64,000 bases of DNA, taken from NCBI GenBank assembly GCA_041499035.1, contig JBGQJK010000003.1, positions 1,953 to 65,952 on the forward strand, written 5' to 3'. This document shows, piece by piece, positions 1,575 through 52,532 of this stretch; position 1 is the stretch's first letter, and each line of letters starts with the position of its first letter. The notes beneath the pieces were generated by a model. The model was not told the origin of the DNA, ran no database searches, and was given only the letters and a program-made list of their open reading frames with translations. The translations under genes and the position numbers were made by a program. The DNA is from Patescibacteria group bacterium. Lineage in GTDB: Bacteria > Patescibacteriota > Microgenomatia > UBA8517.

Positions 1575-3395
1575 TTAGTCTACTTCCGGTAGTTTGATAG
1601 GATGAAGAGTCCCACCCTCATCATTTGTCAGCTGCCTAAGAAACTCTTTCAGATTTGCTGATGCAACACAAGTAACACTGTCGCTTCCGCCGTAGTAAAC
1701 TAAGAGCTGCCCATCCACTATTACTGCGCCGCAGGGGTAGACTACACCGAACTTTGCCAATCCATTTTCATAGTGTTCCGTAGGTTCGATTATGGGGTGA
1801 TTGCTTCTGTGAAGAATTTTGGTCGGGTCATTTAGGTCCAGTAGCATTGCGCCGACTTTATACTTTGATGAATCTGCCTCGCCAACACCCTGATAAATTA
1901 AAAGCCAGCCCTCGTCGGTTTTTATAGGAGGCGCGCCGGTTCCGATTTTACGGCTGTCCCACATATTTGGTCTGGGTTTAATTGCAAACTCGCCTTTTAA
2001 CCAGCTCTTGCCGTCGAATTCCAGATTATCCACAAAGTCTATGAGAATGTTCGGATAAATTCTATGGAAGATTACGTATTTACCGTTAATCTTTTCCGGG
2101 AGAAGACATCCGCTTTTGTCTATTATCCCCGGTGGGGAAATAAGAACGGGCCTGCTCCAGAGAAAATTGCGGTTAAGGAAGTTTTCTAAAAGTATTGAAG
2201 TCATGGCGAGCCTGGGTGGTTCCCAACCGTTAAAAGCCACATAAATCATATAAAGTCTGTCGCCAATTTTTGTAATCCTGGGATCCTCGCAGCCGCCATA
2301 GCCGCCACCCGACATGTATTTTTTGGCAGTTTCGTATGAAGCCTGTTTGCCTTTGACTTCAAAAGGCTCGCTGGCTGCGTATATCGGCTCTTTAAGCCTG
2401 CCGCCGAAGTTTATGCCGTCACAGCTTTCCGCATACCCGAGAACCGAAATGTAGTCCCTGCCTACCGCGCGGTAAATCAGGTAGACTTTGCCATCTTCAT
2501 AAAATGCGGCAGGATTAAAAGCGGCTTCGTTTTCCCAGGCATTTTCCGCGCGTGGCACCAGAACGGGGTTTGCCGGATGTTTGTCGAGTTTATAATGATG
2601 ATTTTCGTGTGCAGGTTCGGACTCAAAAACCGGGTAGGTGATTAAAAATATCCCCACGTCCGAAATGTTCCAATAGCCCAAAAGTTTGCCTTCAAAATAG
2701 ACGCAGCCAAGACAAGTTACCTCGTGGTCTTTCCACTCACCGGGCTCTTGCCAGAGCGAAGTTTTGGTCTGCCAGAGGATTTTGTCGGGACTATTTATGT
2801 CGAAGCACATTGCTTTGGAGTCGAGTGAACTAGTATGGTAAATAACAAAAATGCCCTGGGAGGTTTTGATAACGAAATCAATATAATAATTCTTATCTTC
2901 CGGGAGATCCACTTTCTGAAACTTCCAGCTCTCTCCGTCTTTTGACACCCCAAAAGAAATACTCTTTCCTCCCGTGTACATGACATAATTGCCCTTATGT
3001 TTATAGTCGCTGACTATTACTCCGCCAGAAATACCCTCAGGATTTTTTGTGAAAGTATCCCAGTTTGACAAGCTTAGCGAGGACGCAAAAAATGATCCGC
3101 TTTGTTTTGCATCTACTAATTGGTAGTCCAATAGAAGATTGCCGTTAAACCTGCTTATCTTTAGACCGGAGAGTTTGCCGGGGTCAACCCTTTTTTTATC
3201 GCCGTCCCGGATTGTAAAAACAGATTCGCTCCGTTCGAACTCAAAACCGTCTTTGCTTTCGGCAACACAAACAGCATTGGGAGTATTCGAAGAATAGTAA
3301 TAGAGTGAAATCTTATCGCCGTGCGAATTTACACCCAAACCGCGGATTCTGGCATCTTTAATTGCACCTTTAGGTGGAATTTTTATTTTAGTCAT
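1575..3395 (-). CDS. GH130/DUF377-like protein with two tandem modules (beta-mannoside phosphorylase/glycosidase family)
   Basis: The 616-aa ORF has FNPAAFYEDGKVYLIYRA, GCEDPRITKIGDRLYMIYVA and GAMLLDLNDP motifs, repeated in two halves. The track start at 3425 is a GTG; the first ATG (MTKIKIPP) at 3395 is the more likely start. Confidence 0.7.
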   Translation of the reverse strand: MTKIKIPPKGAIKDARIRGLGVNSHGDKISLYYYSSNTPNAVCVAESKDGFEFERSESVFTIRDGDKKRVDPGKLSGLKISRFNGNLLLDYQLVDAKQSGSFFASSLSLSNWDTFTKNPEGISGGVIVSDYKHKGNYVMYTGGKSISFGVSKDGESWKFQKVDLPEDKNYYIDFVIKTSQGIFVIYHTSSLDSKAMCFDINSPDKILWQTKTSLWQEPGEWKDHEVTCLGCVYFEGKLLGYWNISDVGIFLITYPVFESEPAHENHHYKLDKHPANPVLVPRAENAWENEAAFNPAAFYEDGKVYLIYRAVGRDYISVLGYAESCDGINFGGRLKEPIYAASEPFEVKGKQASYETAKKYMSGGGYGGCEDPRITKIGDRLYMIYVAFNGWEPPRLAMTSILLENFLNRNFLWSRPVLISPPGIIDKSGCLLPEKINGKYVIFHRIYPNILIDFVDNLEFDGKSWLKGEFAIKPRPNMWDSRKIGTGAPPIKTDEGWLLIYQGVGEADSSKYKVGAMLLDLNDPTKILHRSNHPIIEPTEHYENGLAKFGVVYPCGAVIVDGQLLVYYGGSDSVTCVASANLKEFLRQLTNDEGGTLHPIKLPEVD

Positions 3396-4598: not shown

Positions 4599-4625
4599 AC
4601 CCCTCCTGGAGTAAAATACGCTTCT

Positions 4626-5451: not shown

Positions 5452-5946
5452 ATGGCACGAAGTTTAAACAAGGCAATGCTGATCGGGAATCTGACCCGCG
5501 ATCCTGAAATGCGCTACACGCCCCAGGGCGCCGCGGTTTGTACTTTTGGTGTGGCCACCAATAGGAGTTGGAATACCGATGCCGGGGAAAAGAAAGAAGA
5601 CGTAGAATTCCACAATATAGTAGCCTGGAATAAGCTGGCTGAGATCTGTTCGCAGCTTCTAAAAAAAGGCAGGAAAGTTTACGTTGAAGGCAGGCTCTCT
5701 ACCAGAAGTTGGCAGGGCCAGGACGGAGCCCAAAAACAGAGAACAGAAGTTGTAATTTCGGATATGGTAATCCTTGATAAGCGAACGGACGAGCCGACCG
5801 GGGATATAGATATTCCCGAGCCGGGCATGCAGACTCAGGAGGCACCGGCTGCGGAAGAATCTCAGGTTGAAGAAAAAAAGCCCTCCAAGAAATCAAAGTC
5901 TGCTTCAAAAAAAGAAGAACCTGCTGAAGAGGATATACCCTTCTAA
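5452..5946 (+). CDS. ssb: Single-stranded DNA-binding protein
   Basis: OB-fold N-terminus (NKAMLIGNLTRDPEMRYTPQGAAVCTFGVATNRSW), an acidic tail ending DIPF. Confidence 0.9.
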   Translation: MARSLNKAMLIGNLTRDPEMRYTPQGAAVCTFGVATNRSWNTDAGEKKEDVEFHNIVAWNKLAEICSQLLKKGRKVYVEGRLSTRSWQGQDGAQKQRTEVVISDMVILDKRTDEPTGDIDIPEPGMQTQEAPAAEESQVEEKKPSKKSKSASKKEEPAEEDIPF

Positions 5947-6251: not shown

Positions 6252-7481
6252 ATGTCTTTGAGGATAAATTTCGGCAAGGCACGCAACTTCATACTCATTC
6301 TCGTCATTATCGGCCTGTCGTTTTGGGGAGGATATTATTTGGGACTCCAAGGCTTCAGGGCCGAGGTAACAAAAGCACTTAAGGTGAGTATAAGTCGTGA
6401 TGTTCCGTCCAATGAGCATGTGGACTTTTCTCTTTTCTGGCAAGTTTGGGACATTCTTTCAAACAAATATTACGACAAAACCAAGCTGGATCCGAGACAA
6501 ATGGTTTATGGGGCAATAGGAGGTATGGTAAGCTCCCTGGGAGATCCGTTTACATCCTTCCTTCCGCCAACCCAGAACAAAATGGTTAACGAAGACCTTA
6601 GCGGCTCGTTCGATGGCGTAGGAATTCAAATCGGTTTTGACAAAACAGGCAAATTGACGGTGGAAGCTCCCTTACCGGGCTCTCCAGCAGAGAAAGCCGG
6701 GGTTAAAGCAGGGGATTTTGTCGCCCATATTAAAGATGCTAACAAAAAAATCGATATTGATACTCCGGGAATTTCGCTTGCTGACGCCGTGAGCGATATC
6801 AGAGGGCCAGCGGGTACTACCGTAACCCTGACTCTGGTCAGAGACGGGGCGGCGCCTTTTAAAGTTGATCTGGTCCGGGCCAAGCTCGATGTTCCTTCGG
6901 TGGCGCTAACATTCGTAGGTAATGGCGGTCTAATAGCCGACCTCAAGGTTAACAGTTTTGACGCCCAGACGCCGGATGAATGGAATAAACAGGTTGACCA
7001 GATTTTGGCAAAAGGTGGGATTCGCGGCATAATTATAGATCTTAGAAATAATCCGGGGGGTTACCTACAGGATGCGGTGGACCTGACGGGCGATTTTGTT
7101 AAGCTCGGGAGCGTCGTTGTTACAGAGGCCGATGGTGACGGAAACAAAGTTGATTATAAAACACAAAAAGCCGGCAGGCTCTTAAGTTTGCCGGTTGTAG
7201 TGCTAATTAACGGCGGGAGCGCCAGCGCGTCCGAAATTATGACGGGAGCCCTTCAAGATCAAATTCACGCAAGAACAGTTGGCCTAAAGAGTTTTGGTAA
7301 GGGAACAGTCCAGCAGCCGATTGACTTGGCTGACGGGGCGGGACTCCATGTTACGGTTGCAAAGTGGTTAACCCCCAAGGGGACTTGGGTCCACGGCAAA
7401 GGTATTACTCCTGATTTTGTTGTTGACAATCAAAACGCGACTGAGGACGCTCAACTGCAAAAAGCTATAATGCTTTTTTAA
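6252..7481 (+). CDS. ctp: Carboxyl-terminal processing protease (S41 peptidase with PDZ domain)
   Basis: N-terminal TM, a PDZ-like segment (GSPAEKAGVKAGD), and S41 motifs (DLRNNPGGYL, GSASASEI). Confidence 0.85.
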   Translation: MSLRINFGKARNFILILVIIGLSFWGGYYLGLQGFRAEVTKALKVSISRDVPSNEHVDFSLFWQVWDILSNKYYDKTKLDPRQMVYGAIGGMVSSLGDPFTSFLPPTQNKMVNEDLSGSFDGVGIQIGFDKTGKLTVEAPLPGSPAEKAGVKAGDFVAHIKDANKKIDIDTPGISLADAVSDIRGPAGTTVTLTLVRDGAAPFKVDLVRAKLDVPSVALTFVGNGGLIADLKVNSFDAQTPDEWNKQVDQILAKGGIRGIIIDLRNNPGGYLQDAVDLTGDFVKLGSVVVTEADGDGNKVDYKTQKAGRLLSLPVVVLINGGSASASEIMTGALQDQIHARTVGLKSFGKGTVQQPIDLADGAGLHVTVAKWLTPKGTWVHGKGITPDFVVDNQNATEDAQLQKAIMLF

Positions 7482-29213: not shown

Positions 29214-30167
29214 ATGGCTGAGTCTGCTCATAACCAGTCTGAAATAGGAAGAAAAGTAAAAGACTTTCTGGAATATCTTCAAGTTGAGCGAGGCTCCTCT
29301 CCCCTAACGATCAGGAACTACAAACATTATCTAACGCGGTTTATGTTATGGATGGAAAGTCAAGGCATCCGCGAAGATTTACGCGACATTAATCAGGATA
29401 TGGTCCGTAGTTTCCGTGTTTATTTATCCAACTTGCCCGGGGAAAATAAGGCAACGCTGGCACGCCGGACCCAGGGTTATCACGTTATTGCCCTTCGGTC
29501 ATTTCTAAAATGGTTGATACGGAATGATTTTAGTGTTATGGCACCTGACAAAATCGATTTGCCGAAAGTGGAAGAAAGACAAGTCAAGTTTCTTTCCGGA
29601 GAAGAAGTGGACAGAATGCTTAATGCACCGTCCCTTGACTCAATTCAGGGAAAACGCGATAAAGCAATCTTGGAGGTGCTTTTTTCAACGGGACTCCGTG
29701 TTTCGGAACTTACCCGGCTCGACAGGGATAAAGTTAATTTGGATACCAAAGAGTTTGGCATTATCGGCAAGGGGGGCAAGGCCCGTGTGGTTTTCCTTTC
29801 GGGAAGGGCAACCGACTGGCTTATAAAATATTTAAATGAAAGGGTTGATCACTTTAAACCTTTATTCATTCATCATAAGGGCAAGTCCGACCCCACTACC
29901 CCGGATGAGCATATGCGCCTTACTCCCCGCTCGGTTCAAAGGATGATAAAAAAATATTCGCATAAAATGAAGATGCCGATGGAAGTTACCCCGCACGTTA
30001 TGCGCCATAGTTTTGCTACGGACCTTCTAAATGCCGGAGCGGATATCAGAAGCGTGCAGGAAATGCTGGGACACAAAAACATCTCAACTACCCAAATTTA
30101 TACCCATGTAACCAATAAGCAGCTTCGTGATGTTCATGCAGCTTTCCATGGGAAAGGGGGAAGTTAG
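29214..30167 (+). CDS. xerD: Tyrosine site-specific recombinase, XerD/XerC-like
   Basis: ERGSSPLTIRNYKHYLTRF, LFSTGLRVSELTRLD, GKGGKARVV, and HVMRHSFATDLLNAGADIRSVQEMLGHKNISTTQIYTHV (the catalytic R, H-x-x-R and Y). Confidence 0.85.
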   Translation: MAESAHNQSEIGRKVKDFLEYLQVERGSSPLTIRNYKHYLTRFMLWMESQGIREDLRDINQDMVRSFRVYLSNLPGENKATLARRTQGYHVIALRSFLKWLIRNDFSVMAPDKIDLPKVEERQVKFLSGEEVDRMLNAPSLDSIQGKRDKAILEVLFSTGLRVSELTRLDRDKVNLDTKEFGIIGKGGKARVVFLSGRATDWLIKYLNERVDHFKPLFIHHKGKSDPTTPDEHMRLTPRSVQRMIKKYSHKMKMPMEVTPHVMRHSFATDLLNAGADIRSVQEMLGHKNISTTQIYTHVTNKQLRDVHAAFHGKGGS

Positions 30168-33804: not shown

Positions 33805-34062
33805 TTAGGTTTTGATGCGCTTGACTGTTCCGTGGTTAATAAAGACCGCAGGCATACCTTTGACCACTTTGATTCTGCCGATTCTTAGTTTGCACTCCGG
33901 GCAAAATACATCGGTTCCTGTCGGCAAATCCCCCACTCCCACGTAATCCTTGCCGATCCGCTGTATATAGCACTTCATGAGAAATCCCGGCTTCATTTTT
34001 ATATACCGGCCAAAGAGGATGTGCCCATTTTTGCAGTAAACGTCAATTGTTTTAATACTCAT
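33805..34062 (-). CDS. Small zinc-ribbon-like protein
   Basis: CKNGH...CPECK pairs. Confidence 0.4.
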   Translation of the reverse strand: MSIKTIDVYCKNGHILFGRYIKMKPGFLMKCYIQRIGKDYVGVGDLPTGTDVFCPECKLRIGRIKVVKGMPAVFINHGTVKRIKT

Positions 34063-35980: not shown

Positions 35981-36469
35981 ATGGAAACACGGGTGGTATA
36001 CACATTAGCTATATTGGGAGCGCTTGGGGTTGGTGCATATTTTGCTTTGAGACCGAAAGGCAGTTTGCCTCCTGAGAGTCTAATTCCTCCGCAAGACAAA
36101 AGTTCAGATCAGACTCCTCCCATCCAAAATGCCGGCCTTGCAACTTTGGCCCCCACGGAATCCGGACGAAACGGCAACGGTTCTACGAAAGTAAATGGAA
36201 TGACAGGCGCAGTATACCCGGTAGTACCTGATCCTGAAGGCAGGAATAGAGAGTGTTTGGGAGTGGGAGCATATAGTGTCGGAAATCCGGTAACCGTTGA
36301 CGGTGCGGCGGTAGCTGAGGGTTCGGACAACAGCGTTTATATTGATGCTGAAGGCGACATTTATTCAAAAGGGGTAAAAATTGGAAGTTGGAATAGGAGT
36401 GCTTTGCCAAGTAATGAACAATTTGGACACACTAAGCCTGAGGACAAGATTGTTGTTTGCGCAAACTGA
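35981..36469 (+). CDS. Secreted hypothetical protein
   Basis: A signal/TM, then a Gly/Pro-rich sequence. Confidence 0.45.
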   Translation: METRVVYTLAILGALGVGAYFALRPKGSLPPESLIPPQDKSSDQTPPIQNAGLATLAPTESGRNGNGSTKVNGMTGAVYPVVPDPEGRNRECLGVGAYSVGNPVTVDGAAVAEGSDNSVYIDAEGDIYSKGVKIGSWNRSALPSNEQFGHTKPEDKIVVCAN

Positions 36470-36478
36470 TTAGGGACT

Positions 36479-36501
36479 GCAGTGGGGCCAGAGACTGCGC
36501 T
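36479..36501. repeat. Left copy of a ~23-30-bp direct repeat (gcagtggggccagagactgcgct)
   Basis: It matches 37182..37204 at 22 of 23 positions. On the minus strand it would encode ...KRSLWPHCSP*, a relic of the Rpf-like gene's C-terminus. Confidence 0.6.
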
Positions 36502-36506
36502 TTGTA

Positions 36507-36815
36507 TTAAGTAAGGAGTTTCGCGCGGTGAGTAAGAATATTTCCCCAAGTCATCATACTTTCGGCCCAAACCGAAGGGTCTTTTGGTCCGTGTAAACCC
36601 TCTTTTTGAAGTAATGGATACTGATTTGTAAAACTGCTGAAAGTTCCTGCAAAAGCAGCTGGAAGTGTTGAAGAATTTAAGTCCTGAATATAACTTGACG
36701 TGTTAACTAAAAACGTTTTTATTCTCTCTTTTTTACCTAAGTAATCATCAGCTGCCCAGTTTCCTACTCTGTTAAGATTCATTGCAATATCCAATATTTT
36801 GGCCTTGTTATTCAT
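36507..36815 (-). CDS. Hypothetical protein; second gene of the repeat-flanked two-gene cassette
   Basis: 102 aa; separated from the upstream gene by 1 nt. Confidence 0.45.
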   Translation of the reverse strand: MNNKAKILDIAMNLNRVGNWAADDYLGKKERIKTFLVNTSSYIQDLNSSTLPAAFAGTFSSFTNQYPLLQKEGLHGPKDPSVWAESMMTWGNILTHRAKLLT

Positions 36816-36816
36816 A

Positions 36817-37155
36817 TTATTTCAAAAGTTTTCCTACTATTGCATCAAATCTTTTTCTTATACCAAGAGAAAGGATATCCCGGGACGGATTATTATCCTT
36901 GGGCCGGAGATTTATTATTGAATTGTAGTCAACTTCGTTTGTTTTAACATCGAATCCCCCGCCCCAGAGATTTTTCTGTGAAGAACCATTATTGAGTAGA
37001 GCCTGTTCCTCATCAAAATGCCTGTCTCCTCCGCCCGAGAGAATTTCCTTTTCAATGTCTACCACGACTTTTATATATCCGTCGAAACGTTTAGCCATTT
37101 CTGCTATTTGTTCTTTTGAAGCTCTACCCGTGATAATCATATTCTTAAAACCCAC
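36817..37155 (-). CDS. Hypothetical protein; first gene of the repeat-flanked two-gene cassette
   Basis: 112 aa, with GGGD/GGG glycine motifs. Confidence 0.45.
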   Translation of the reverse strand: MGFKNMIITGRASKEQIAEMAKRFDGYIKVVVDIEKEILSGGGDRHFDEEQALLNNGSSQKNLWGGGFDVKTNEVDYNSIINLRPKDNNPSRDILSLGIRKRFDAIVGKLLK

Positions 37156-37172
37156 TTATTCTAACATACCAT

Positions 37173-37742
37173 TTATGGGTAGCAGTGGGGCCAGAGGCTG
37201 CGCTCCCCAATGCTTACGGCATATGAAGCGGTTTGGACTGCTTCTTCCGCATTAGCCCTTAGAGACAGATTCGGGTCCTCCCCCATTTTGATTCTTAAAT
37301 TTTTCCAGGTAGTTGCGTCGAACTGGAAAAGGCCCAAGTAGACGGAATTTTTTGCAGAAGGATTAAATCCCGATTCACAAATCGCAATCGCGCGTATTAC
37401 ATTTGGGTCAACTCCATATTGCCCCGCAAAGCGGTTTGTGAATTCATAAATTTCTGCGGATGTAAACGTAGGTTGTGGAATTGGAGTCGGAGTTGGTTTG
37501 GGCGTAGGTTTTTTGGTTGGAGTCGGTGACGGGGATGGCGTTGGTGAAGGGGTATCAGTTGGCATTGATGTTGGGCTTGACGAAGACGTTGCTTCCGCCA
37601 TAACTTTTTTCTCTTCATTCGGGCGATTCATAATATACAAAGTCACAACTTCTCCGAATAGAACGAGAAGGAGGATAGACAAAATGAAGTTTTTCATACG
37701 GGTAATTCTAGCACTACTTTCCTCTGTGCTTGAAGTATTCAA
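37173..37742 (-). CDS. Membrane-anchored Rpf/transglycosylase-like domain protein with a Pro/Thr linker
   Basis: AIAICESGFNPSAKNSVYLGLFQFDATTW (Rpf-like transglycosylase core), a PTPSPSPTPTKKPTPKPTPTP linker, and an N-terminal TM. Confidence 0.65.
   Translation of the reverse strand: MNTSSTEESSARITRMKNFILSILLLVLFGEVVTLYIMNRPNEEKKVMAEATSSSSPTSMPTDTPSPTPSPSPTPTKKPTPKPTPTPIPQPTFTSAEIYEFTNRFAGQYGVDPNVIRAIAICESGFNPSAKNSVYLGLFQFDATTWKNLRIKMGEDPNLSLRANAEEAVQTASYAVSIGERSLWPHCYP
37182..37204. repeat. Right copy of the direct repeat (gcagtggggccagaggctgcgct); it forms the 3' end of the Rpf-like gene
   Basis: It encodes ...ERSLWPHCYP* of the 37173..37742 gene on the minus strand. Confidence 0.6.
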
Positions 37743-37891
37743 CCTGCTGAAGTCTGTGGACCGCGTCTTCCCGTTTTTTGTAAGGGCCCCCGAGATGCTT
37801 ACGGCTGGTTCTTCCGATTACGTAATAGCCTTCCTTCCGTTTAATTATCACCATTCATTATAACAGCCATTTTTTTGATATAATCCCTAAC

Positions 37892-49826: not shown

Positions 49827-52532
49827 ATGACAATAGTAAAACGATTTGCTTCAGTTTTAATAGCCACCCTTGTGCTTCTTGTTTTATGCCCCATAATGTC
49901 GCCGGCCAAAGCTATTGCAAACTGCCCCGGAGGCACGACGCTAGGTTTTGTGGCACATGAGGACGACGACATCCTTTTTTTAAGTCCGGACATACTCCAC
50001 GACATTCAAAACGGCAGGTGTGTTGTAACAGTTTTTGTGACAACTGGGGACGATAACCAGGGAACCACCTATTGGCAACAGAGAGAAGCGGGAGCAAAGG
50101 CAGCTTATGCCCAGATGAATGGGGTGGCCAGCGCCTGGACTCAGTTTGATGCCGGAATTCCGGGGCATCCTGCCCCCCTCACAACCTTAGTAGGAAAGCC
50201 GGCAATTTCTTTAATATTTATGAGGCTCCCTGACGGTAATGGGGACGGTTCCGGTTTTTCTAATGATAACTTTGAAAGCCTCCAAAAAATTTGGCAAGGA
50301 GCGATATCCTCTGTTCATGCAGTTGACGGAACTTCAACCTACTCTAAACAAGACATAACAAATACATTTGCCTATCTTATGAGTACTTACTCTCCAGACC
50401 AAATTCGTACACAAGACTATGTTCACGCTTATGGGGACGGTGATCATAGTGACCATCATACGGTTGGATATTTTGCCAACTTGGCAAATCAAAGCTACGG
50501 CCTGGGGCACACTTTTACAGGTTATCTTGATTACCAAACTTCTTCTCTCTCCGTAAACGTGGCCGGGGCCGACTTCTCTAATAAACAAAATGCGTTTTTT
50601 GCTTATGCTCCACATGATCCTTCAGTTTGTCAGACGCCATCTGCGTGTCAACAAAATGATTACGGGAAGTGGCTTGCGCGCCAATATGTTGCAGGAAGTA
50701 TAACAATAAGCGGGTCAACCCCAAATAATGTTGGGTTACAGGCAACGGTCACAGCTTCATCCGAAACGCCGGCTACGCTCCAGTATGCAACAAAAGCGGT
50801 TGACGGAGTTATCGACGGTTACCCCGGAGATTATACAAAGGAATGGGCCACCAATGGAGAGAAAGTTGGAGCCTGGTTAAATTTAACCTGGCCGGTTTCA
50901 CAAACTATAAATCAAATAGTTCTTTACGACAGACCCAACAGTGATGACCAAATTACAGGCGCAAATTTAATATTTAGTGACGGGTCTGTAATTTCTGCGG
51001 GAGGTTTGAATAATAACGGTTCTCCTGTAACTATAAACTTTGCGCCTAAAACTATTACAAGCGTACGCCTTAATATTACAAGTGTTAGCTCAACTACCAT
51101 TAACGTAGGACTTTCCGAAATTCAGGTTTTTCAACAAGGGTCTGGTGGTACATCAACCCCTACTCCGACTCCAACTCCAACAGTTACACCTACGGTAACT
51201 CCTACCCCTACGGCTACCGCCACACCCGGTTCCAATTCTTTTACTGGTCAGTATTTTTCCAATCAAAATTTAACCGGCAGCCCAACCCTTACCAGAAATG
51301 ATCTATCTGTAAACTTTGATTGGGGATCAAACGCTCCTGACCCTTCGCTCCCAAAGGATAATTTTTCAGTTCGCTGGACTGACAATCAAACTTTTCCGGC
51401 CGGAACTTACAATTTTTCCGTAACAGCAGATGACGGTGTCAGGCTTTTCCTTGATGGAAACGCGATCATCAATAAATGGATTGATCAGCCGGCGACAATT
51501 TATACAACAAATGTATCATTAACTTCAGGACAACACTCAATTGTTATGGAATATTACGACAACACACAGAACGCCGTTGCTAAACTCTCATGGTCATCGG
51601 TTAATGCCACACCAACACCCACTGCTTCACCAACCCCTACCCCGTCAGGTACGCCAGATGCCAATTCCTACACAGGTCAATATTTTTCTAATCAAAATCT
51701 TACAGGTTCCCCCACTCTTACAAGAAACGATTCAACGATAAATTTTAATTGGGGACTTGGCGCGCCAGACCCGTCTCTTCCAAATGATCATTTTTCTGTG
51801 CGTTGGACTAAGAGCCAAGCTTTTTCTGCGGGGCCTTATACATTTTCTGTGACGGCGGATGATGGGGTAAGGCTTAAAATTGACGGGAATACGGTAATTG
51901 ATAAATGGATCGACCAAGGATCAACAACATATACAACAAATCTTAACCTAACTGCTGGAACTCACACAATTGTTATGGAATTTTATGACAATACCGAGGA
52001 CGCAATTGCCAAATTTTCATGGCTTGCGGTTGGTTCTACACCAACTCCGACGCCAACGGGAACTCCCACTGCTTCACCAACCCCTACCCCGACACCGGGT
52101 CCTTCCCAAAATGGTCTCCAAGGACAATACTTTAATTCGACGGACTTGAGCGGGACCGCGGTTTTAACAAGAACTGATCCAAACGTAAATTTTGACTGGG
52201 GTATGGGTTCCCCCGGCCCGGGAGTAAATAGCGACAAATTCTCTGTTCGCTGGACAGGTTTTATAACACCCTCCTTTACGGAAAATTATACTTTTTGCTC
52301 CACGAGCGACGATGGAGAAAGAGTGTGGGTCAACAACCAGCAGGTTCTTAACTTCTGGGTAGATCAGGGGGCGACAGAACACTGCGGAAACATTAATCTT
52401 GCCGCAGGAGTTAAAGTTCCGATAAAGGTTGAGTTCTATGATAATACTGAAGAAGCGATAATGCAGTTGTCATGGCAGTCGGCCACACAGCCTAAACAAG
52501 TTATTCCGTCAGCCAGCCTATCTGTACAGTAA
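49827..52532 (+). CDS. Secreted multidomain protein: PIG-L/LmbE-family deacetylase, a discoidin-like domain, then three PA14 domains separated by Thr/Pro linkers
   Basis: GFVAHEDDDILFLSPD (PIG-L motif), then three repeats of YTGQYFSNQNLTGSPTLTRND...FSVRWT...DDGVRL..., which are PA14-like, separated by TPTPTPT linkers. Confidence 0.75.
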   Translation: MTIVKRFASVLIATLVLLVLCPIMSPAKAIANCPGGTTLGFVAHEDDDILFLSPDILHDIQNGRCVVTVFVTTGDDNQGTTYWQQREAGAKAAYAQMNGVASAWTQFDAGIPGHPAPLTTLVGKPAISLIFMRLPDGNGDGSGFSNDNFESLQKIWQGAISSVHAVDGTSTYSKQDITNTFAYLMSTYSPDQIRTQDYVHAYGDGDHSDHHTVGYFANLANQSYGLGHTFTGYLDYQTSSLSVNVAGADFSNKQNAFFAYAPHDPSVCQTPSACQQNDYGKWLARQYVAGSITISGSTPNNVGLQATVTASSETPATLQYATKAVDGVIDGYPGDYTKEWATNGEKVGAWLNLTWPVSQTINQIVLYDRPNSDDQITGANLIFSDGSVISAGGLNNNGSPVTINFAPKTITSVRLNITSVSSTTINVGLSEIQVFQQGSGGTSTPTPTPTPTVTPTVTPTPTATATPGSNSFTGQYFSNQNLTGSPTLTRNDLSVNFDWGSNAPDPSLPKDNFSVRWTDNQTFPAGTYNFSVTADDGVRLFLDGNAIINKWIDQPATIYTTNVSLTSGQHSIVMEYYDNTQNAVAKLSWSSVNATPTPTASPTPTPSGTPDANSYTGQYFSNQNLTGSPTLTRNDSTINFNWGLGAPDPSLPNDHFSVRWTKSQAFSAGPYTFSVTADDGVRLKIDGNTVIDKWIDQGSTTYTTNLNLTAGTHTIVMEFYDNTEDAIAKFSWLAVGSTPTPTPTGTPTASPTPTPTPGPSQNGLQGQYFNSTDLSGTAVLTRTDPNVNFDWGMGSPGPGVNSDKFSVRWTGFITPSFTENYTFCSTSDDGERVWVNNQQVLNFWVDQGATEHCGNINLAAGVKVPIKVEFYDNTEEAIMQLSWQSATQPKQVIPSASLSVQ

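Follow-up and report, generated by a model that had tools for sequence, protein, structure and literature searches.

The locus analyzed here raises the question of how a second, non-coding copy of the end of a lytic transglycosylase gene came to lie on the far side of two small genes. The locus is part of a stretch of 64,000 nucleotides (nt) on contig JBGQJK010000003.1 from a Patescibacteria group bacterium of the Microgenomates (assembly GCA_041499035.1), which was analyzed in full and is referred to as the window. In the order of minus-strand transcription it includes the gene for a transglycosylase with an SLT domain, a gene of the DUF5674 family, a gene for a protein of 102 amino acids (aa), the displaced copy (hereafter the relic), and the convergent gene g162. 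In the initial annotation, the DUF5674 gene and its 102-aa partner (the pair) were taken for a module, possibly of the toxin–antitoxin or immunity type, which had arrived by site-specific insertion into the end of the transglycosylase gene. The analysis favors, at about even confidence, a different answer, that the relic is a dead 3′ remnant of an SLT gene, left as the scar of recombination or exchange with a related lineage beside an ancient operon.

The two copies of the repeat, GCAGTGGGGCCAGAGACTGCGCT on the left (36479-36501) and GCAGTGGGGCCAGAGGCTGCGCT on the right (37182-37204), were confirmed by direct reading of the sequence to be the same at 22 of 23 positions. They are the sole occurrences of the 23-mer in the window when up to three mismatches are allowed; none was found in 100 dinucleotide shuffles, and the number of such 22/23 pairs expected by chance inside 1.5 kb is about 1e-4 to 1.5e-4. 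With a repeat finder, the match was lengthened to 32 nt with 27 identities (36470-36501 against 37173-37204). Both 32-nt copies start at a reverse-complemented TAA stop codon, and beyond this stretch the similarity between left and right drops at once. The right copy is the end of the transglycosylase gene (...ERSLWPHCYP*), as had been proposed, and corresponds to the last ten codons of the mechanically defined open reading frame (ORF) at 37173..37742, which starts from a TTG at 37742. The left copy, when read on the minus strand, gives ...KRSLWPHCSP* with the in-frame stop retained, in a frame unlike that of the 102-aa gene, and is indeed what remains of a displaced SLT gene end.

The relic occupies the 37-nt gap between the stop codons of the 102-aa gene and g162, and its own stop codon directly adjoins the TGA stop of g162, indicating that an SLT gene end and g162 were once neighbors. 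The unit framed by the two copies consists of exactly two genes within an insert of 671 bp, one copy being located 5 nt past the 102-aa stop and the other 32 nt ahead of the DUF5674 ATG. In terms of topology, the pair is "inserted" between the SLT end and g162. The insertion geometry described in the initial annotation stands in this respect, since the copies frame the two-gene unit exactly and the junction between the SLT end and g162 is now split, but the unit is not a new cargo (see below).

Table 1. Features of the SLT–DUF5674 locus. Positions are those of the window.
Feature	Position	Strand	Basis
g87, small conserved gene and synteny marker; directly after the 102-aa gene in L070 and L076	35659..35922	-	Synteny comparison
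g162, lineage-specific orphan that faces the pair convergently; hydrophobic helix at the N-terminus	35981..36469	+	Homologue search
Left copy, non-coding relic of SLT gene terminus (RSLWPHCSP*)	36470..36501; 23-nt core 36479-36501	-	Sequence, repeat search, terminus alignment
102-aa partner gene, no Pfam family, second of the pair, 1 nt past the DUF5674 stop	36507..36815	-	Sequence, homologue alignment, AlphaFold
DUF5674 family gene, 107 aa from ATG, first of the pair	36817..37140 (GTG alternative start 37155)	-	PF18924 E 4.9e-29; family alignment; gene calls
Right (live) copy, last ten codons and TAA of SLT gene (RSLWPHCYP*)	37173..37204; 23-nt core 37182-37204	-	Sequence, repeat search
SLT-domain lytic transglycosylase, N-terminal membrane anchor and Pro/Thr-rich linker, 174 aa from ATG	37173..37697	-	PF01464 E 1.2e-8; 99%-identical 174-aa protein P0121

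A functional or repeated element, such as a terminator, a REP-like (repetitive extragenic palindromic) sequence, a protein-binding site or a small RNA, could also be located at the left copy, or the match could be due to chance, and both are considered very improbable. The position between convergent genes is indeed where terminators are expected, and multi-copy intergenic motifs flank the pair in other genomes (loci are identified by L numbers), as in the case of a palindrome in L010 (four copies), a promoter-like motif in L017 (five copies), and motifs in L088 and L092. The 23-mer, however, is present in only two copies in the window and was not found in more than 100 related loci of other lineages nor in viral contigs, and a genome-wide REP-like repeat, which the initial annotation had kept as an option against itself, is not supported by these scans of the window, the related loci and the viral contigs. 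The hairpin gcagt...actgc noted within the repeat did not hold up, its stability being no better than that of shuffled sequence (z −0.14 to +0.68), and neither terminator patterns nor Rfam matches overlap the repeat. A chance origin is opposed by the expectation given above and by the preservation of the reading frame, the Pro codon and the stop codon of the gene end. A site for Xer recombinases, as used by integrative mobile elements exploiting Xer (IMEX), was also rejected because the repeat is without the dif-like 11-6-11 architecture and is not common to lineages. The relic is presumably without present function. As to the intergenic motifs themselves, the palindrome AATTTGTCTTCAAATTAGCT and its relatives were located at 4616, 5300, 8802 and 9247 of L010 and at 3183, 3878 and 4414 of L088, and motifs of this type recur in the intergenic regions of Woesebacteria- and Roizmanbacteria-type loci. 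The L017 motif TGCTATAATTGCCCCATGA is located ahead of successive genes and combines a −10 box with the start codon, an arrangement that suggests very short or absent leaders.

The distribution of the pair was examined in 41 loci from species-representative genomes of Microgenomates and 63 loci from metagenomes. The DUF5674 gene is located immediately upstream of the 102-aa gene in 40 of the former and 53 of the latter, and the pair occupies one locus per assembly, complete genomes included, indicating that it is an old, conserved operon. In general the SLT gene is not a direct neighbor of the pair; some lineages have it upstream in the same orientation, adjacent in L050 and separated by zero to three genes in L076, L070, L067, L088 and L025. 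A convergent gene of 261 aa is among the extra genes at this junction in L070. In L050, with the order SLT-DUF5674-102aa, the next gene begins 1 nt past the stop, and hence there is no relic. Some relatives, then, have the pair but no repeats around it, L050 in the SLT context itself and others in contexts unrelated to it; the latter is what the initial annotation had itself named as contrary to an insertion. The idea of a foreign, recently arrived module is not upheld for an ancient, single-locus pair that follows SLT in at least these six loci.

The other side of the locus was also compared. Homologues of g87 and g85 (85 aa) come directly after the 102-aa gene in L070 and L076; in the window, both genes sit beyond g162. 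The matches of g162 (162 aa) in 5.8 billion proteins were itself and one partial homologue, the latter without a recorded contig. Taken together, the lineage-specific interval is the relic plus g162, and not the pair. The search for an empty site, as recommended in the initial annotation, gave none, as the pair is present in each of the seven contigs that encode an identical g162 or 102-aa protein. Exact-protein look-ups with the 102-aa protein, g162 and the SLT protein yielded occupied near-identical strains only and no intermediate relatives in the databases; the same locus is also present in GCA_041496805.1. Neither phage records nor IMG/VR contigs contain the pair.

With respect to g85, which is located at 33805-34062 on the minus strand and carries two CxxC-type motifs, the protein is 88% identical in the relative L047 (6691-6945), of which the SLT protein is only 64% identical, and is thus unusually conserved in comparison with its neighborhood. 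SLT and g85 are about 1.2 kb apart in L047, and the DUF5674 pair is absent between them.

The first protein of the pair belongs to PF18924, a Pfam family without assigned function, with 101 bits against the cut-off of 27 (E 4.9e-29) over profile positions 2-109 of 109, and no mention of DUF5674 was found in the literature searched. The initial statement that neither gene has a recognizable domain thus fails for the first ORF, then read as 112 aa, but stands for the 102-aa protein, for which Pfam, NCBIfam and PADLOC gave no match. The DUF5674 start is probably the ATG at 37140, giving 107 rather than 112 aa, which is preferred by gene callers and by the family alignment. A candidate extended −10-like sequence, TGTTAGAAT, was recognized by eye ahead of the gene at 37158-37166 on the minus strand. 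The 102-aa protein has about 400 homologues in Microgenomates of the candidate phyla radiation (CPR/Patescibacteria), which are 60-79% identical and share the invariant blocks DIAMNL.R.GNWAAD and WAE.M.TWGNILTHR. The AlphaFold model of this protein is an all-alpha helical bundle with a predicted local distance difference test score (pLDDT) of 95.

The tight coupling of the two genes, separated by 1 nt, was confirmed, the pairing being recurrent in the genome loci described above and in all of seven Nostocales plasmid loci (see below). The suggestion of a toxin–antitoxin or immunity function was not borne out. Pfam, NCBIfam and PADLOC connected neither protein with toxins, antitoxins or defense proteins, and PDB sequence profiles gave nothing below E 0.2. 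Foldseek with the 102-aa model returned generic helical bundles only (E > 0.1); this fold comparison covers the 102-aa model, as the single-sequence model of DUF5674 (pLDDT 43) was unusable. With all these searches empty, a toxin–antitoxin, abortive infection (Abi) or immunity identity was ruled unsupported. The pair resembles type II toxin–antitoxin modules in that two small genes run in the same direction only 1 nt apart and, for the Nostocales modules, in being plasmid-borne and sometimes duplicated. It differs from them in that homology or fold matches are absent and that the Microgenomates pair is single-locus, with a conservation across classes (60-79% identity) far above that of typical toxin–antitoxin pairs. 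We infer that the pair is cellular cargo rather than a toxin–antitoxin system.

The transglycosylase gene that ends in the right copy was assigned to the SLT family (PF01464) with 35 bits against a gathering cut-off of 21.3, and its homologues are annotated as SLT-domain proteins. The score with the Rpf-type family PF06737 was 19.9 bits, below the cut-off of 27, and that with the NCBIfam RpfC model was E 0.054; the label "Rpf-like" given at first is therefore correct at the level of the clan only, and not as a family assignment. In several public annotations, a 121-aa antisense ORF at 37498-37863 on the plus strand is called instead of the minus-strand SLT gene. This ORF is Gly/Val-rich as a result of reading the Pro/Thr linker in reverse, and is likely to be a gene-calling artifact.

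The age of the duplication was estimated from the divergence of the SLT terminus. At third codon positions of the pair, the window and L050 share only 50-55% identity, and the terminal 33 nt of SLT are identical at 18-22 of 33 positions in relatives. The relic, although unconstrained, is identical to the live copy at 27 of 33 positions, indicating that the duplication is much younger than the linkage between SLT and the pair. Family alignment defines the SLT terminus as W-P-[NH]-C-x-P-stop with variable x, and the five differences between the relic and the live copy comprise one synonymous Ser change, one synonymous Pro change and the replacement of the whole x codon, so that the relic keeps all the invariant residues and the stop. 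When substitutions were placed at random, 1.6% of the simulations kept the terminus signature; treating the codon swap as a single event raised this to 4.8%. Clustering of the mismatches is significant as well (1/23 against 5/9, p = 0.003). Substitutions that spare the constrained positions would imply that the two copies diverged as two functional termini, in two lineages, and were joined later by recombination. As far as can be judged from the sequence, this pattern suggests that the relic is the terminus of a former functional SLT allele.

The same data bear on an intragenomic shuffle, in which g162 was first located between SLT and the pair, and the order was swapped by tandem duplication of the SLT-end/g162/pair segment followed by deletions, or by local copy-and-paste. 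The junction between SLT and DUF5674 is variable in relatives, as described above for L070, the relic is closest to the SLT terminus of the window itself, and foreign DNA is not required. A shuffle, however, needs two or three precise events at minimum, and no further remnants of a duplication were found in the window, the 32-nt repeat being the only one, without a second trace of DUF5674 or the 102-aa gene. Clustered mismatches and spared constrained positions are also unexpected for a neutral copy made in situ. This explanation is considered improbable. A decayed tandem duplicate of the pair underlying g162 was likewise rejected, because no second trace of either gene was present in the window.

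Under the favored recombination with a related lineage, DNA from a related Microgenomates lineage would have been the partner, and the exchange would have placed the DUF5674 and 102-aa operon with its short leader between the SLT stop and the convergent g162. Two routes may be considered. A single crossover within shared sequence, either in SLT on one side or in g87 on the other, could have been combined with a join made illegitimately at the opposite end, as in homology-facilitated illegitimate recombination (HFIR). Alternatively, a circularized fragment could have integrated where the short SLT homology allowed one crossover. In either case the terminus of the former allele would have been stranded as a scar, and this origin would account for the selected-looking SLT terminus. 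The event presumably involved no element-encoded enzyme. Scars of HFIR and of Campbell-type integration are known from naturally transformable bacteria. The similarities to them are that DNA enters beside a homologous anchor gene, that the junction is not site-specific and no element enzyme is needed, and that a piece of the anchor is found on both sides of the insert. The differences are that no donor was found for the present case, and that the homology of 23-32 nt in the window is about as short as RecA-type exchange allows.

Several points weigh against this reading. Neither a donor nor an "empty" haplotype with SLT adjoining g162 was found among the flanking-identical contigs, all of which are occupied, or among the distant relatives, which are without g162. 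HFIR usually deletes, rather than duplicates, at the illegitimate joint. The argument from selection is built on five substitutions only. In addition, the repeat fits the unit tightly, and similar bracketing with unrelated repeats was found in four other lineages, for which a self-inserting unit would be the more economical account.

This bracketing was surveyed in 79 non-redundant loci, and for the enrichment count a tight definition and a two-copy filter were used. The L031 repeat consists of the 3′ terminus of a 398-aa gene, stop codon included, and its two copies match at 18 of 20 positions in the scored core, or at about 28 of 33 when extended by eye. The repeat of L040 (16/16) extends across the upstream stop codon, that of L076 matches at 24 of 26 positions, and that of L111 (31/33) holds the start codon of a divergent gene; taking out the unit together with one copy would restore an apparent HicB-HicA-128aa operon in L111. 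In all four the downstream copy is located roughly 0-20 nt past the 102-aa stop, and the four repeats are related neither to one another nor to the 23-mer of the window. The pair is bracketed in 4/71 cases against 6/493 for other units of one or two genes, an enrichment of about 3-5-fold that is borderline (p = 0.027); without the window the count is 3/70 (p = 0.089). Bracketed genes other than the pair were found in L016, L017 (HicAB), L050 and L074. Apparent bracketing of the pair in L010, L017, L088 and L092 was discounted because the repeats are multi-copy intergenic motifs, and that in L114 and L116 was an artifact of truncated loci. Repeat bracketing is thus real and recurrent in these genomes, but may not be specific to the pair.

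On this basis, the DUF5674 and partner unit might be a small mobile cassette, possibly toxin–antitoxin-like, that entered SLT at its very 3′ terminus through an att-type or staggered-cut mechanism, with duplication of 23-32 bp of the target. Its support consists of the exact bracketing in the window, the tight bracketing by unrelated two-copy repeats in the four loci with the enrichment that follows from it, and a candidate −10-like element of its own, noted by eye, in the short leader of each unit. The cassette is the main rival to the favored reading, but is considered rather unlikely. The pair in Microgenomates is single-locus, near-universal in the sampled loci and very conserved, and the synteny of SLT, the pair and g87 is common to several lineages. 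The absence of a transposase noted at first was confirmed, for no transposase domain, and no integrase, was found in or beside the unit. The nearest recombinase is, as had been stated, the xerD-like gene (29214-30167), which was confirmed to be a XerC/D-type tyrosine recombinase, but is located 6.3 kb off in a housekeeping context. Terminal inverted repeats are absent, the best inverted match close to the ends of the insert (11/14) being non-terminal and at chance level. The enrichment is not significant once the window is removed, and unrelated genes are bracketed too. The absence of the pair from phage and IMG/VR contigs, the lack of toxin–antitoxin or defense homology, and the selected-looking rather than neutral substitutions of the relic also stand against it.

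The locus was also compared with known insertions. The attL/attR sites of integrative elements that target and reconstitute the 3′ end of a gene, for example islands in tRNA or tmRNA genes, are similar in that direct repeats (22/23 in the core, 27/32 when extended) flank the insert and copy the target 3′ end, leaving the gene intact and the displaced copy at the far end. In the window, however, the 671-bp insert holds the DUF5674 and 102-aa genes only, with no integrase in or beside it, the cargo is a conserved core-like operon, and a conserved att core is absent, the repeats of the four bracketed loci being unrelated. The attL/attR pair offered in the initial annotation is accordingly not supported. 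Target-site duplications of transposons and casposons are likewise direct, target-derived and flank the insert, but the window is without transposase, Cas1 and terminal inverted repeats, and the duplication (23-32 nt, and 16-33 nt elsewhere) is longer and more variable than the classical ones, with no shared core.

Modules with DUF5674 were also found outside Microgenomates. DUF5674 homologues 42-50% identical to the window protein are encoded on 33 plasmids of Nostocales (Nostoc, Calothrix, Anabaena and Trichormus), sometimes at two places on a plasmid. In all seven loci inspected (L119-L125, e.g., NZ_CP047243.1 311847-312544), the DUF5674 gene is followed, with a 4-nt overlap, by a hypothetical gene of 115-120 aa. 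These modules lie in variable accessory contexts, near genes for TnpB, ISLre2 transposase, thermonuclease, GIY-YIG proteins or methylases, and their distribution speaks for mobility of the unit. Accessory, multi-copy distribution is, however, a feature of the plasmid modules, whereas the Microgenomates pair shows one locus per assembly and strong conservation, and none of the seven plasmid modules is bracketed by repeats. No homology was detectable between the Nostocales partner and the 102-aa family; hhalign aligned the expected N-terminal block with a probability of about 1% and E 0.04-0.05. The architecture of DUF5674 with a small partner is conserved across two phyla, and DUF5674 together with its downstream partner appears to be an undescribed two-gene system. 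A more speculative view, to which little probability is assigned, is that the pair is a self-contained cassette (its own −10 plus two genes) that is relocated or re-acquired now and then by an undescribed process leaving gene-end duplications of 16-33 bp. The window, L031, L040, L076 and L111 would then be five independent footprints and the Nostocales plasmid modules the accessory face of the same system, and the process might involve one of the two proteins.

Other repeat-bracketed units were observed in the loci compared. In L017 (5304-5969), the 102-aa gene is followed at once by a HicA/HicB-like pair that lies between perfect 76-nt direct repeats and looks like a genuinely repeat-bracketed toxin–antitoxin cassette; a HicAB-like pair also directly follows the 102-aa gene in L111. 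In L050, a perfect 16-nt repeat (5822-5837 and 6472-6487) surrounds a 149-aa gene located two genes downstream of the pair. The preceding gene, of 175 aa, has the upstream copy as its 3′ end (...FFMP*), showing the same relic anatomy as in the window with an unrelated gene, and an EcoRI-type methylase gene and a GmrSD/HNH gene come after the 149-aa gene. In L016, perfect 58-nt direct repeats (1166-1223 and 1925-1982) surround a single gene of about 225 aa, and the repeat holds the palindrome CCACCTCTAAGGTGG, which is also present in L107. Elsewhere in the window, a 34-nt direct repeat (51614-51647 and 52061-52094; 94% identical, 447 nt apart) is located within a 901-aa ORF (49827-52532), and is probably an internal protein repeat.

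The scar described here is of a familiar kind, and it marks a change of gene order in a streamlined CPR genome that is almost without mobile-element machinery. Units of one or two genes that are bracketed by repeats copying the end of a neighboring gene occur at a low rate in Microgenomates, and this hints at a general, recombinase-independent route of insertion. If the bracketing proves specific to the DUF5674 pair, it would indicate a new kind of cassette mobility.

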